Of a stretch of 5,780 bases of DNA, positions 1-5,200 are shown piece after piece (the first letter of the stretch is position 1; each line of letters opens with the position of its first letter). Source of the stretch: a virus (taxonomy: Duplodnaviria > Heunggongvirae > Uroviricota > Caudoviricetes); the IMG/VR virus record IMGVR_UViG_2778261316_000002. The stretch is one strand, 5' to 3'. The translations under genes were made by a program, and so were the position numbers. The notes below the pieces were generated by a model. It worked only from the letters and a program-made list of their open reading frames with translations, ran no database searches and was not told the origin of the DNA.

Positions 1-81
1 GTAGCTGAACAGGAGGGACAGCTGATAGAAACAGAAGCCACTGGAGCACCTCAAAAACACCATCATACACTAAATCAGTAA
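1..81 (+). CDS. 3' end of an upstream gene, probably the tail-fibre variable C-terminal part (Sv); 5' end lies outside the window
   Basis: Frame 1 is the only frame open from position 1 and ends at TAA 79-81, 27 bp before the tfa ATG at 109. The product is assigned from position only. Confidence 0.35.
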   Translation, partial: VAEQEGQLIETEATGAPQKHHHTLNQ

Positions 82-108
82 GTTGGCAGCATCACCACTG
101 GCGTAAGT

Positions 109-576
109 ATGCCCGCCTGTTCCACTGGTATTGACCCGGGCGAATACATTCCGGGGAAAGTGGCAGTATTTACGGGTAAGGGATGGAGCCATGAAGAAGA
201 CCACCGCAATGAGACTGTTTACTCAATCGAAAATGGCGCAGCTGTTACAGTGGATTATATCGGTGCCATCAAAGACGGTTATGTCACGCTTTCACCGTTA
301 ACGCCATACGATAAATGGGATGGTGAGAAATGGGTGACAGATACTGAGGCACAGCATAGTGCCGCAGTAGACGCAGCAGAAGCACAGCGCCAGTCGCTGA
401 TTGATGCTGCAATGGCTTCCATCAGTCTGATTCAACTGAAATTACAGGCCGGACGGAAGCTGACGCAGGCAGAAACAACCCGACTTAACGCCGTGCTGGA
501 TTACATTGACGCGGTGACGGTAACAGATACCAGCACCGCGCCGGATGTCATCTGGCCTGAACTGCCGGAGGCGTAG
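109..576 (+). CDS. tfa: Phage tail fibre assembly protein (Tfa / Mu U-like chaperone)
   Basis: ATG at 109, 155 aa; C-terminal segment ...LDYIDAVTVTDTSTAPDVIWPELPEA is the characteristic Tfa C-terminal signature; position is directly after a tail-fibre 3' end. Confidence 0.85.
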   Translation: MPACSTGIDPGEYIPGKVAVFTGKGWSHEEDHRNETVYSIENGAAVTVDYIGAIKDGYVTLSPLTPYDKWDGEKWVTDTEAQHSAAVDAAEAQRQSLIDAAMASISLIQLKLQAGRKLTQAETTRLNAVLDYIDAVTVTDTSTAPDVIWPELPEA

Positions 577-988
577 GCCATTCAATATCTGGCGCACCGG
601 AAGTATCGACCAGTTCCAGTGTGTCCAGATAATCCAGCCACAAATTATATTGCGCCAGTTCCTCACCTTTCAGGCGACCAATCGCCGCTTTACCAGGCCA
701 TTGCTTACTGTTTATGTATTCGTTGACCTGATTAATCAATTGCTGCTTTTCCAGTTCGGCTGCGGCAATTTGTTCCTCATGAGTTGGCGGTGGAATATCA
801 ATCCATGCAGGCATTCCGTCGATGACGCCTCTGTATTTTCCTTCTGGTGCTTCCTTCATAAATTCGGCGGCAACAGTGTCGTCAATTTCGATTCCATCAC
901 CGGGCCATTCGCCGGATTCCTGATAAGCGATTTTAAGCTCCACAGGGAAAAACGCATTTTTATCGGCACTGAAAATATATCTCTGCAT
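548..988 (-). CDS. tfa: Alternative tail fibre assembly protein (Tfa', Mu U'-like), convergent with the first tfa
   Basis: ATG (cat at 986-988 on +), 146 aa; C-terminus ...LDYLDTLELVDTSGAPDIEWPTPPAVQAR carries the same Tfa signature; preceded 2 nt upstream by the stop of the Sv' reading frame (tight coupling). Confidence 0.85.
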   Translation of the reverse strand: MQRYIFSADKNAFFPVELKIAYQESGEWPGDGIEIDDTVAAEFMKEAPEGKYRGVIDGMPAWIDIPPPTHEEQIAAAELEKQQLINQVNEYINSKQWPGKAAIGRLKGEELAQYNLWLDYLDTLELVDTSGAPDIEWPTPPAVQAR

Positions 989-990
989 TT

Positions 991-1389
991 CTACCGTCCT
1001 ATCGAAATATAACTGAATCTGTATTGATATGAGATATCACTGGTTGCCACACGCCACGCTGAATTACTGATATGTTCAAAATTTACAGACAAAACCTGCG
1101 GGGCAGGATTCGACGGGTCTGACTGAACGGCATCAGACATAACACTGACTGAAACCATCGGCTGATTAGGGAATGGTATAGGGAAGTGTCCACTGATAAA
1201 GCGGGTCGTGTTTCCTGCAAAAGTGCCAAACTGAACAATATATCCACCTGGTAGCCTGAACCATCCCGAACCAGAAGCGAATGCTCCCATATCCGGTATC
1301 TGATTATCTCCTGTGCCCACATCCCTTTTCGCCGCTTCTCCTAAACCAACGTTTATGAAAATGAAGAAATAACAAGCAAATGGCATCAT
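991..1389 (-). CDS. Alternative side-tail-fibre C-terminal variable segment (Sv'/StfE-like), promoterless; expressed only when inversion fuses it to the constant tail-fibre 5' part
   Basis: Open frame 991-1389 on the minus strand reads through the predicted crossover site (1336-1361) and encodes a tail-fibre-like stretch ...VGTGDNQIPDMGAFASGSGWFRLPGGYIVQFGTFAGN... The ATG at 1387-1389 is probably fortuitous and the real segment begins at the crossover site. Confidence 0.6.
   Translation of the reverse strand: MMPFACYFFIFINVGLGEAAKRDVGTGDNQIPDMGAFASGSGWFRLPGGYIVQFGTFAGNTTRFISGHFPIPFPNQPMVSVSVMSDAVQSDPSNPAPQVLSVNFEHISNSAWRVATSDISYQYRFSYISIGR
1336..1361. other. Putative Hin/Gin/Pin-type inversion crossover site (pix/gix-like), right boundary of the invertible segment
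   Basis: TTCTCCTAAACC-AA-CGTTTATGAAAA: 12-2-12 imperfect palindrome with the AAACC / central AA / GTTT core of the hix/gix family; lies about 55 bp upstream of the invertase ATG and inside the Sv' frame, as in Mu. Confidence 0.45.
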
Positions 1390-1415
1390 TCCTGCTTTTA
1401 CCAGGGGGATTTAAC

Positions 1416-1970
1416 ATGCTTATTGGCTATGTACGTGTATCAACAAATGACCAGAATACCGATCTACAACGCAATGCGCTGAACTGTGCAGGGTGTGAGC
1501 TGATTTTTGAAGACAAGATAAGCGGTACAAAGTCCGACAGACCAGGACTGAAAAAGCTGCTCAGGACATTATCGGCAGGTGACACGCTGGTGGTCTGGAA
1601 ACTGGACCGACTGGGGCGCAGTATGCGGCATCTTGTCGTGCTGGTGGAGGAGTTGCGCGAACGAGGCATCAACTTTCGTAGTCTGACGGATTCAATTGAT
1701 ACCAGTACCCCAATGGGGCGCTTTTTCTTTCATGTGATGGGTGCCCTGGCTGAAATGGAGCGTGAACTGATTGTTGAACGAACAAAAGCTGGACTGGAAG
1801 CAGCTCGCGCACAGGGACGAATTGGTGGACGTCGCCCCAAACTTACACCAGAACAATGGGAGCAGGCCGGACGATTAATTGCATCAGGCGTTCCTCGCCA
1901 GAAGGTGGCGATCATCTATGATGTTGGTATATCGACACTGTATAAGAAGTTTCCGGTCGGAGATAAATGA
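1416..1970 (+). CDS. pin: Serine recombinase / DNA invertase of the Pin/Gin/Cin/Hin family
   Basis: ATG at 1416 with GGGGGA Shine-Dalgarno 6 nt upstream; 184 aa beginning MLIGYVRVSTNDQNTDLQRNAL... with the catalytic serine in VRVSTNDQ and a C-terminal HTH region (...GVPRQKVAIIYDVGISTLYKK); near-identical in pattern to Gin/PinE as I recall them. Confidence 0.95.
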   Translation: MLIGYVRVSTNDQNTDLQRNALNCAGCELIFEDKISGTKSDRPGLKKLLRTLSAGDTLVVWKLDRLGRSMRHLVVLVEELRERGINFRSLTDSIDTSTPMGRFFFHVMGALAEMERELIVERTKAGLEAARAQGRIGGRRPKLTPEQWEQAGRLIASGVPRQKVAIIYDVGISTLYKKFPVGDK

Positions 1971-1972
1971 AA

Positions 1973-2013
1973 CCGTAGCACGTCGTATGTAAGAAGATCG
2001 TGCTGCGGTTTAT
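1973..2013. terminator. Putative bidirectional intrinsic terminator between convergent pin and the GIY-YIG gene
   Basis: 10-bp stem CCGTAGCACG (1973-1982) / CGTGCTGCGG (1999-2008) with one G-U pair and a 16-nt loop, followed by TTTAT on + and by TTTCATTTAT on the minus strand. Confidence 0.4.
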
Positions 2014-2030
2014 GCTTATCACTTAAAGAC

Positions 2031-2900
<870 letters not shown>

Positions 2901-2980
2901 CTAAGTCTTTGAATTTACATAGTACAAAAAAGATACTTTTCCTCATAATGTGAATTAATTTTATGTTTCGTTTGATGATT

Positions 2981-3046
2981 GGACCGGTCTCGAAAACCGG
3001 AGTAGGGGCAACTCTACCGGGGGTTCAAATCCCCCTCTCTCCGCCA
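2981..3046 (+). pseudogene. 3' fragment of tRNA-Ser(CGA) (serU-type), anticodon arm to CCA; attachment-site scar
   Basis: GGACCGGTCTCGAAAACCGGAGTAGGGGCAACTCTACCGGGGGTTCAAATCCCCCTCTCTCCGCCA matches the 3' two-thirds of E. coli tRNA-Ser(CGA) as I recall it; the acceptor 5' strand (GGAGAGA) and D-arm are absent upstream, so it is not a functional tRNA. Confidence 0.8.
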
Positions 3047-3567
3047 CTTTATCAATGACTTATCTCCCGACTTCCCGCCTTGCTTTTCCTAAACAGAACA
3101 ATCGTAGAATATTCTTGAAGGGTTAGATCGTCACTGTTTTCTGTTCGATACTGTGACATTCAGCACTTGATTCGCTATGGATCTGACAGGAAGGTTTTGA
3201 GCGAAAATCTGCAGTTATTCAGTCGTTTTCTTATCGGTCACCATTATTCTTTTAGACATTGATCCTACAAAGCTGCCGCAAAGTTGGTGGTGGGAACTGA
3301 AGTTGCGTAGAGAAGGGGTCAATACCCGGAGGCAAACATGGGCTGGCAAAAGTGTAGCGGTATTAGGCGCAGCTATTTAGCCTAGTTATGTTTTATGAAA
3401 ACTTGATGTCATATAAGTGTCTTACTTATTGGCTGTAAATAAGTTTTTTCTAAGGAATTGTTTCTTGAGTATCATTTGTAACTGTAACGGAATTTATAAT
3501 CCTTTGCTTTATTGTTACGGTATTTTTTATCACACCCTATTTTTTATGTGGTTTTTTATACTGAAGT

Positions 3568-3597
3568 TTGGCAAAGTGAACTTTATATGCATATACT
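3568..3597 (+). promoter_or_regulatory. Candidate sigma70 promoter for the AraC-family gene
   Basis: TTGGCA (3568-3573), 18-bp spacer, TATACT (3592-3597); predicted start about 25-30 nt upstream of the ATG at 3631, in very AT-rich DNA. Confidence 0.3.
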
Positions 3598-3630
3598 TCA
3601 TCCTGTTTTCAGTTAAATTGGATGGATGAT

Positions 3631-4374
3631 ATGGCAACTACATGTTCAGTTATATTGATTTTGGAGTCCTTTGATATTTATTTCGGAAAAGAGAGTGTGT
3701 TTCTGGAGAGAGGTTCATCTGTACTTGTCGACTCTAGCTCTAGAGATTTTTTCCTGACATATCCTGAAAGAGTGATAGTGGCGGATTTTGGCGCTGAGTT
3801 TATTAGTCGCTATTTGAAAGCTAATAACTTAAGGGATATTTCTGATTGTAGGGAATATCCATCTTATTTAAAAATAAACTTTGCTGACTTCAGTTTAATT
3901 AAAGGATTAATTAATTGGGCTAATCACTGTGCTGAATACATAGAAATTTTTGATGAGTCTATTGCTTTTACATGTCTCTCTGCATTTTCTTCTGAAAAAC
4001 AATTTGGAGTATTTCTGTTTGGATGTTTGAAAAGCACAGGGGCTAAAGTTAAAACGATTATTCATACGGATTTATCTGCACCATGGCGTCTTAAGGATAT
4101 ATCATCAAGATTATATCTCAGCGAAAGTTTACTAAAGAGGAAATTGAGAGAAGAGGGGGTATCATTCAGTAAGATCATACTTGATGAGAGGATGCAAATG
4201 GCTGAATATTTACTCAGCACTCGTTGTTATCCTATTAGTAAAGTAGCTAAGGTCTGTGGTTATGCCAGTGTCTCATACTTTACTTATGTATTTAGACGTT
4301 ATTTTGGTGTTTCTCCAAGTCAATACTCTCAGAGGAGTTCAGAAAGTAAAATTCTTACTCACCAGGGAATCTGA
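3631..4374 (+). CDS. AraC/XylS-family transcriptional regulator (YdeO/AppY/GadX-like clade)
   Basis: C-terminal double HTH ...PWRLKDISSRLYLSESLLKRKLREEGVSFSKIILDERMQMAEYLL...CGYASVSYFTYVFRRYFGVSPSQY is typical AraC-family. The N-terminus MATTCSVILILESFD resembles the YdeO/AppY N-termini, so the ATG at 3631 (SD-like GGATGGA upstream) is preferred over 3622. The gene is AT-rich relative to flanking DNA. Confidence 0.85.
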   Translation: MATTCSVILILESFDIYFGKESVFLERGSSVLVDSSSRDFFLTYPERVIVADFGAEFISRYLKANNLRDISDCREYPSYLKINFADFSLIKGLINWANHCAEYIEIFDESIAFTCLSAFSSEKQFGVFLFGCLKSTGAKVKTIIHTDLSAPWRLKDISSRLYLSESLLKRKLREEGVSFSKIILDERMQMAEYLLSTRCYPISKVAKVCGYASVSYFTYVFRRYFGVSPSQYSQRSSESKILTHQGI

Positions 4375-4380
4375 TCATTG

Positions 4381-4643
4381 TTCTTGCCCCCTTATTTCCA
4401 GACAGGGGGTGTATCTTAAGTTAACGTTACCCGCTGACGTCGATATTCTCGCGGAGAGCGATAACCCAACGCACTGTGCGGATGGTTTTCATTGTAATGT
4501 TCGATCGCCACTGCAAGATTATGCAATGCCGTTCTTACATTCGGTTTCGGCATGAACGCGATGTAGTCTTCCTTCATCGTTTTCACGAACCTTTCTGCCA
4601 TTCCATTACTCTGAGGACTGCTGATTACCCATGAGGAGTACAA
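4381..4643 (-). mobile_element. IS3-family (IS2-group) insertion-sequence remnant: terminal inverted repeat plus 3' end of the transposase gene; the rest of the element is missing
   Basis: 4381-4420 TTCTTGCCCCCTTATTTCCAGACA... resembles the IS2 terminal repeat (GCCCC...TTTCCAGACA); the adjacent minus-strand ORF encodes a transposase C-terminus; the reading frame is broken upstream of about 4640. Confidence 0.7.
4416..4643 (-). pseudogene. Transposase OrfB (integrase-core, DDE) C-terminal fragment, IS2-like
   Basis: ...[26 protein letters not shown]...[23 protein letters not shown] closely parallels the IS2 InsD C-terminus (SPESNGIAESFVKTIKRDY...[19 protein letters not shown]) as recalled; only about 70 aa are retained. 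Confidence 0.75.
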
Positions 4644-4863
4644 TTAAACGGGTTAATCAGTTTCTCCATTTGAAAGAAAAAAGACTTCTGTACTGTTTGA
4701 TATCACCGCTATTTTCTTATTTTCTGTGCAGGTCGTAGTGGGACAAAACTGAGACACATAAGGCCTCACAATGGCTTGCAAGGCTTTACATGTTTTGATG
4801 TGGTGGGACGTGTGAGCGCAGTGTTGATGGGGTAATACTTTGAATTAGAAGCGGATTCTTATG

Positions 4864-4909
4864 ATTCGTAATGCGAAGGTCGTAGGTTCGACTCCTATTA
4901 TCGGCACCA
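4864..4909 (+). pseudogene. 3' fragment of tRNA-Thr(CGU) (thrW-type), anticodon loop to CCA; second attachment-site scar
   Basis: ATTCGTAATGCGAAGGTCGTAGGTTCGACTCCTATTATCGGCACCA matches the 3' portion of E. coli thrW as recalled; the 5' acceptor strand GCCGATA is absent upstream. Confidence 0.8.
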
Positions 4910-5200
4910 TTAAAATCAAATTGTTACGTAAGATCTTATCATTCTCCCACCAAAAAATTATCTTAATGTAACAGCTGGTGTAAGTAAATTCTATCAACGA
5001 AGATCAATCTTATCTACTGACCAAAAAGGCCTGATAGGGCTTCGCTCACTATACATCCTTGGCTGCAGGTTTAGTTGTACACCACTCCTAAATTTAATGT
5101 GTTGGCAATGTGTTCAATAAAGCTCGAACAAATTAGCTCATTATGATCGGTTAATATTTCAACTTCTGGTTGCATGATTGTTTGTCCGTAAAAAGATAAC

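Follow-up and report, generated by a model that had tools for sequence, protein, structure and literature searches.

A 66-nt fragment of a tRNA-Ser gene, embedded in prophage-derived Escherichia coli DNA, is best explained (with a probability of roughly 0.85) as the relic of an attR site that was formed at the chromosomal serU locus. This relic, consisting of a phage arm, the 66-nt core and 278 nt of host flank, now lies, as a probable passenger, in a prophage that is integrated in thrW. The analyzed stretch of 5,780 nt, in the following called the window, corresponds with 100% identity to positions 1335949-1341728 (minus strand) of E. coli NZ_CM194533.1. For the analysis of its surroundings the window was extended by flanks of 20 kb to a locus of 45.8 kb (L001), a window position being the L001 position minus 20000. 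The features relevant for this reading are, in window positions and with the strand where one applies:

1416-1970, plus strand: pinE serine DNA invertase gene (RefSeq; Pfam Resolvase and HTH_7), part of the block which is colinear with the right end of the serU prophage of strain MB15
2031-2804, minus strand: LEM-3-like GIY-YIG gene (Pfam PF22945), in the serU-type phage the final gene ahead of the attachment site
2805-2980: phage-side (P) arm of a serU-type attR ("type A" left arm), which precedes the genuine serU attR in MB15
2981-3046, plus strand: tRNA-Ser(CGA) 3′ fragment, nt 25-90 of serU including CCA, the att core of a serU-integrating phage, non-functional as tRNA
3047-3324, plus strand: serU-yodB spacer, 278 nt of chromosomal DNA natively following serU, captured along with the attR
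3325-3380, plus strand: truncated right end of an IS630-family element, its last 56 nt (98% over 56 nt, for example to positions 1601-1656 of the Nissle 1917 locus L010)
3631-4374, plus strand: gene of an AraC-family regulator, probably PatE (Pfam HTH_AraC/HTH_18; 244/247 residues, 99%, identical to Sakai ECs_0287)
4416-4625, minus strand: remnant of an IS3-family transposase gene (RefSeq pseudogene; repeat_region "ISEc48 partial" in Sakai)
4739-4863: P arm of an SfV/SfII/SfI/P22-type attP, the phage side of the true attR (96-98% identity to the attP of SfIV, SfI, SfII and SfV)
4864-4927, plus strand: 3′ repeat of thrW (tRNA-Thr CGT), the core of the true attR and right boundary (46 nt of tRNA plus downstream bases)

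In the alignment with the 90-nt serU gene of K-12, the fragment (GGACCGGTCTCGAAAACCGG...CTCTCTCCGCCA) agrees at 66/66 positions, an exact match that can be regarded as far above chance. Identity to serU breaks off exactly at 2980/2981, leaving the fragment without the 5′ acceptor strand and the D-arm (24 nt). The initial annotation, which had recognized the 3′ two-thirds of tRNA-Ser(CGA) including CCA with the 5′ part being replaced, was correct in this respect. A functional tRNA requires a complete cloverleaf with an acceptor stem, which the fragment does not possess. ARAGORN did not call any tRNA in the window, and an Rfam search of the window yielded no match to a tRNA family at E ≤ 1. When the fragment was folded as RNA, just the anticodon, variable and T hairpins were left (z-score 0.08), with an energy no better than that of shuffled sequences. 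No repeats involving the Ser fragment were found within the window, and crude consensus scans of 2750-3700 revealed neither promoter-like nor terminator-like sites over the fragment, the single promoter-like site of this region being located at 3568-3597, just upstream of the AraC gene. As no tRNA can be formed, as the element contains neither a cognate attL nor a cognate integrase gene, and as promoter- and terminator-like sites are absent, the fragment is regarded as a passenger that would be inert today. In the RefSeq record both tRNA fragments of the window (Ser and thrW) are unannotated, and no paper describing a displaced serU relic was found in a literature search. A longer core of 71 nt, which had been derived from megablast extensions to query position 20, was dropped, as the Sakai copy is substituted left of a 62-nt core and the exact match of the window comprises 66 nt.

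The left part of the window has a counterpart in a prophage that resides in serU of strain MB15. Positions 1232-3324 align without any gap to positions 46411-48503 of the MB15 locus (L006; 95.5% identity), the alignment ending at 3324, and the GIY-YIG protein of the source genome and that of MB15 have the accession WP_000355484.1 in common. The order in MB15 is mtfA, an intact serU, three small genes, a tyrosine integrase gene, a prophage of ~39 kb with a contractile tail and a tail-fibre segment before pinE, then pinE itself, the GIY-YIG gene, the 66-nt fragment and yodB. The three small genes between the reconstituted serU and the integrase gene (L006 9183-11434) are hypothetical ones and occupy a cargo position at the other att end. 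Alignment to serU, which had been proposed in the initial annotation for defining the core repeat, gave nt 25-90, the same 66 nt that form the direct repeat of attL and attR in MB15. In addition, a composite query consisting of the GIY-YIG end, the fragment, the flank and the yodB side of K-12 was matched from end to end by two genomes, MB15 and RMDEC332 (98.5-98.6%), and in both of them GIY-YIG gene, fragment, flank and yodB are contiguous at the native serU locus. As the gap-free alignment with MB15 includes phage arm, core and host arm and stops at 3324, the window contains a complete serU attR that has been relocated. The attR sites of the lambdoid serU prophages of MB15 and SerU-LTIIb (KU052038) share with the window the same serU 3′ core of 62-66 nt and the same 278-nt host flank. 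For MB15 this likeness extends to the left arm and to the GIY-YIG and Pin genes, and in the SerU-LTIIb record a pseudo-tRNA-Ser of 62 nt is annotated before yodB. Compared with these genuine serU attR sites, the copy of the window lies off serU, lacks a paired intact serU and a serU-type integrase, has its flank cut at 278 nt and is joined to IS630 and AraC sequences.

The 278 nt that follow the fragment show 9 mismatches to K-12 and 8 to the serU flank of the source genome itself. Fragment and flank together are a 344-nt copy of the serU locus, and homology to this locus ends abruptly at 3324/3325. At this novel joint, position 278 of the host flank abuts an internal point of an IS630-family element, 56 nt from the end of the element. 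The joint is non-homologous and lies inside the IS, since 3325-3380 represents the far (3′) IS end. An interpretation of 3324/3325 as an insertion site of IS630 (with TA as target) was ruled out on the same ground. The AraC gene, from which the GIY-YIG gene diverges with the Ser fragment between the two, was also considered as being native to the serU locus. This was rejected, as a scan with a composite query (full serU, relic flank and AraC upstream region) found an intact serU followed by the AraC module in 0 of 5426 complete E. coli genomes. Judging from its similarity to the Sakai protein, the encoded regulator is probably PatE, a reported prophage-encoded activator of acid-resistance genes. 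The region known as O-island 8 is presumably the thrW prophage. PatE has been assigned to z0321 in O-island 8 (PMC10877973).

The prophage in which the relic is found today belongs to a different tRNA gene. According to RefSeq, L001 begins with proB, proA and thrW, followed by a tyrosine integrase gene, an excisionase-like gene, a few early genes and a truncated exonuclease gene. Its middle part contains tail-gene debris, IS1, tail-fibre assembly genes, pinE and the LEM-3-like GIY-YIG gene, and its right part an unannotated gap with the Ser fragment, the AraC regulator gene, an IS "integrase core" pseudogene, ykfI/yafW and the rest of a CP4-6-like island. On its left, the element thus begins with an intact gene for tRNA-Thr (thrW), 7.4 kb left of the Ser fragment. 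Intact thrW (at L001 15472-15535) and positions 4864-4927 of the window (L001 24864-24927) form a direct repeat of 64 nt (95%), and the homology of many genomes to the window stops at 4910-4927. The sequence right of the intact thrW matches the other arm of the SfV attP, and attL (B-O-P′) and attR (P-O-B′) of the element are accordingly built with SfV attP arms, as expected of a thrW prophage. The integrase encoded next to thrW is identical to SfV Int in 364 of 372 residues (98%), and its similarity to the integrase of the MB15 serU phage is restricted to a local match of 58 aa with 31% identity. Taken together, the thrW repeats, the SfV-type attP arms and the SfV-type integrase identify the element as a decayed prophage of the SfV-integrase type in thrW. 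It has a length of ~9.4 kb, and the Ser fragment lies 1.9 kb inside of it.

This arrangement decides against the fragment being the current attR of a serU prophage in the source genome, with serU and the integrase gene far to the left and older chromosomal DNA to the right, as had been put forward in the initial annotation. Such a reading would account for the attR-core form of the fragment, for the colinearity of the left block with the end of a genuine serU prophage (MB15) and for the first 278 nt to the right being serU-flanking chromosomal DNA. It is nevertheless very improbable. ARAGORN found no tRNA-Ser in the 45.8 kb of L001 (~23 kb on each side of the fragment). Over 22 kb to the left, thrW is the sole tRNA gene, with the SfV-type integrase gene adjoining it and the core genes proA/proB beyond it. 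The source genome has its native serU, intact and with no element inserted, 1.78 Mb away between mtfA and yodB (4360230-4360319). To the right, the native flank ends after 278 nt and is followed by phage-borne DNA, namely the IS630 remnant, the AraC gene and the IS3 remnant, which runs to the thrW attR. The Pin prophage does consequently not end at the fragment but 1.9 kb further right, where the thrW repeat and the SfV-type attP arm are located, and the DNA right of the fragment (PatE-like AraC gene and IS remnants) is still part of the thrW prophage, as in the published annotation of Sakai Sp1.

The initial proposal of an attR scar therefore holds for the origin of the fragment, a Pin/GIY-YIG prophage integrating into serU with its intact layout being preserved in MB15, and fails for the current boundary, which is the thrW attR at 4864-4927. 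Likewise, an intact tRNA-Ser gene with a cognate integrase at the far left is found in MB15, whereas in the source genome this place is taken by thrW and the SfV-type integrase gene. The two observations which the initial annotation itself had named as speaking against its proposal were both made: a matching tRNA or integrase is missing upstream, and the fragment is part of a longer sequence, the 344-nt serU-locus copy. It had recognized neither the serU flank nor the thrW fragment, nor that tRNA-Thr is the intact tRNA at the left end.

The thrW element was found to be part of a tandem array of thrW, an Sp1-like prophage, the thrW repeat and a CP4-6-like island. Window positions 1-1389 together with L001 18816-20100 comprise a Pin-invertible tail-fibre segment with convergent tail-fibre assembly genes and a gp53-like gene. 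This segment is truncated on its left by IS1 and abuts the truncated exonuclease gene, which indicates that the prophage has lost almost all of its structural and replication genes by deletion. A locus of heat resistance adjoins the CP4-6-like island 10-25 kb right of the window (L001 33403-45780). It contains genes for sHSP20-GI, ClpK, YfdX1/2, HdeD-GI, Trx-GI, KefB-GI, PsiE-GI, HtpX and a serine protease, and is notable because the isolate originates from a reusable food-transport container.

A described equivalent of the element is found in O157:H7 strain Sakai, in which the prophages Sp1 and Sp2 are reported at thrW and Sp14 at serU (PMC8190617). Sp1, annotated as "prophage Sp1, lambda-like" and defective, is 96.5% identical to window positions 1287-4629 and shows the same order of thrW, integrase gene, tail-fibre segment, pinE, GIY-YIG gene, Ser relic, AraC gene, IS3 remnant and thrW repeat. 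The annotated end of Sp1 lies past the AraC gene and the partial IS, at a position equivalent to the thrW repeat of the window. The two elements differ in their early regions, which decayed differently, and in an IS1 insertion and a shorter IS3 remnant in the source genome. Furthermore, the Sakai copy carries 3 substitutions just left of the core, and the right neighbor of the prophage is the P4-like Sp2 in Sakai in contrast to the CP4-6-like island in the source genome. A thrW pseudogene is, as we assume, also what marks the far end of CP4-6 in K-12. Like this pseudogene, the Ser fragment is the truncated 3′ end of a tRNA gene which results from site-specific integration. Unlike boundary pseudogenes that mark current edges, it is situated 1.9 kb inside an element bounded by the repeats of another tRNA gene.

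The relic is not restricted to these two strains. The junction of fragment, flank and AraC region was present in 524 of the 5426 complete E. coli genomes, i.e., in about a tenth of them, and 420 of the 5426 contained this junction together with the left arm of the window type. The AraC module as such was found in 645/5426, with ~120 E. coli genomes having the AraC gene without the relic junction. In phage records the AraC gene is always linked to the serU relic. The phages ev099, mEp332 and PhiR70_1 carry window positions 2985-4626 at 99% identity, in each case as a block that has the tail-fibre genes on one side and the integrase end of the genome on the other, and 30 contigs of IMG/VR contain the exact joint of host and IS630 DNA. 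In ev099-like phages the relic block lies beside a separate integrase gene, and in strain G12 a related prophage was found beside ybhB/bioA. In lambdoid phages with other integration modules, the block occupies the non-essential stretch that separates the tail-fibre genes from attP-int. In strain MS 69-1, the junction of GIY-YIG gene and Ser fragment is also present on the chromosome as well as at positions 28760-29684 of NZ_CP146678.1 (64 kb), a record which could be an extrachromosomal or excised form of the prophage or a duplicate of the assembly.

This distribution also bears on the idea that the fragment might be a decayed phage tRNA gene, a tRNA-like sequence arisen by chance, or an artifact of assembly or rearrangement in one genome. 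Lambdoid phages do carry tRNA genes, four of them being listed in the SerU-LTIIb record. Yet the identity to host serU extends into 278 nt of host flank which is not tRNA, the left arm equals that of a real attR (MB15), and the structure recurs in 420-524 complete genomes, 3 phages and 30 IMG/VR contigs, so that an explanation of this kind is hardly credible.

Further information on the origin of the relic can be drawn from the captured flank. The 278-nt flanks of the window, Sakai Sp1, the three phages and the 30 IMG/VR contigs represent one allele, with 0-3 differences among the copies (0-2 differences from the window for the 30 contigs). K-12, MB15, E. coli 41 and the source genome have native flanks that deviate from this relic allele by 8-9 differences, located at flank positions 148, 152, 163, 191, 215, 222, 223 and 226, and in K-12 only also at 272. 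With this number of differences the copy of the window is not a recent duplicate of the serU locus of its own genome. The native serU flanks of GN06156 and PRO_A-1551, by comparison, differ from the relic flank at just 2 positions, which makes an E. coli with a GN06156-like serU flank the probable donor. These two strains belong to an E. coli lineage in which yodB is missing altogether, zinT directly following serU at their native loci (L012 and L013). Two scans of species-representative genomes found neither an intact serU with the relic-type flank allele nor the allele alone, and thus gave no trace of the donor beyond E. coli.

The common joint and the common flank allele, as read from the sequences compared, point to a single origin of the relic block. 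Its left arm is less uniform. Over the 116 nt that adjoin the core on its left, ev099 and eight of the IMG/VR contigs agree with the attR arm of SerU-LTIIb ("type B") and not with the MB15-type arm. Type B, as present in ev099 and the SerU-LTIIb prophage, and type A, as present in the window, Sakai and MB15, are unrelated arms, whereas core, flank allele and IS630 joint are the same in type A and type B relics. As two unrelated arms are thus found on one right-hand block, either the arms were swapped later via core and flank or the capture took place twice. Most simply, the relic would have been captured once and would later have exchanged its left arm, via core and flank, with a prophage residing in serU; two independent captures may also be behind the two left arms.

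The relic would then have arisen as follows. A lambdoid Pin/GIY-YIG phage resembling either MB15 or LTIIb would have lysogenized the serU gene of an E. coli with a GN06156-like flank. Either a deletion or an aberrant excision like that which gives rise to lambda-bio phages would have joined the attR and 278 nt of flank to the IS630/AraC DNA, and the original integrase end would have been lost. Recombination with other lambdoid phages may subsequently have provided new integration modules, in the present case one of the SfV type at thrW. Lambda-bio specialized-transducing phages are the textbook comparison for such a process. As in these phages, host DNA contiguous with attR is found inside phage genomes (ev099, mEp332, PhiR70_1 and the 30 IMG/VR contigs), the joint between host and phage DNA is novel and non-homologous, and the original integrase end is missing. 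Unlike in lambda-bio phages, 278 nt of host DNA are left, the joint lies in an IS630 remnant, and a different integration module has been acquired since. The scans of complete E. coli and species-representative genomes did not reveal any intermediate, for example a lysogen of serU in which the flank is followed by the IS630/AraC module. Aberrant excision, deletion and recombination between prophages are all conceivable as the route of capture and would leave traces that are not distinguishable from one another.

As an alternative to an inert passenger, the relic could be an active recombination site, at which exchange with serU prophages takes place in dependence on RecA or on the Int/Xis of serU phages, and which could promote rearrangements between thrW and serU. 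This would be consistent with the two unrelated left arms on one right-hand block that has the same flank allele and IS630 joint, with the two right-hand continuations of one and the same left arm (yodB in MB15, AraC here) and with the presence of both the relic (Sp1) and a serU prophage (Sp14) in O157:H7 Sakai. However, the pattern of arms is explicable by one or two rare historical events, and recombination products were in no case seen directly. An attR (P-O-B′) alone is moreover no substrate for integration, and the thrW element does not encode any serU-type integrase. An active site is consequently improbable, and the only plausible activity of the relic is that of a 344-bp homology patch to the serU locus. 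Somewhat speculatively, the displaced attR might be viewed as a portable crossover point through which lambdoid phages of thrW or other sites swap their tail-fibre and cargo ends with serU prophages. If this doubtful idea were true, it would explain the two unrelated left arms on one right-hand block, and such sites could seed thrW-serU inversions in strains with Sp1 and Sp14 such as O157:H7.

Remnants of tRNA genes at attachment sites are well known, and the Sp1 element and its neighboring regulator are so as well, nothing mechanistically new being involved. What is unusual here is that the remnant is ectopic, retains host flank and travels in phage genomes. For the calling of prophage boundaries this means that the 3′ fragment of a tRNA gene alone is no proof of an edge, the true att repeat being located 1.9 kb off and belonging to another tRNA. 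The relic also exposes a succession of steps that natural phages seldom reveal, from integration into serU over the capture of attR and flank to the spread on phages with other integration modules. It is present in about a tenth of the complete E. coli genomes, including that of O157:H7 with Sp1, where it lies beside a probable acid-resistance regulator, patE. A few hundred bp of homology to the serU locus are thereby placed on mobile phages, which could matter for prophage mosaicism and genome rearrangements.
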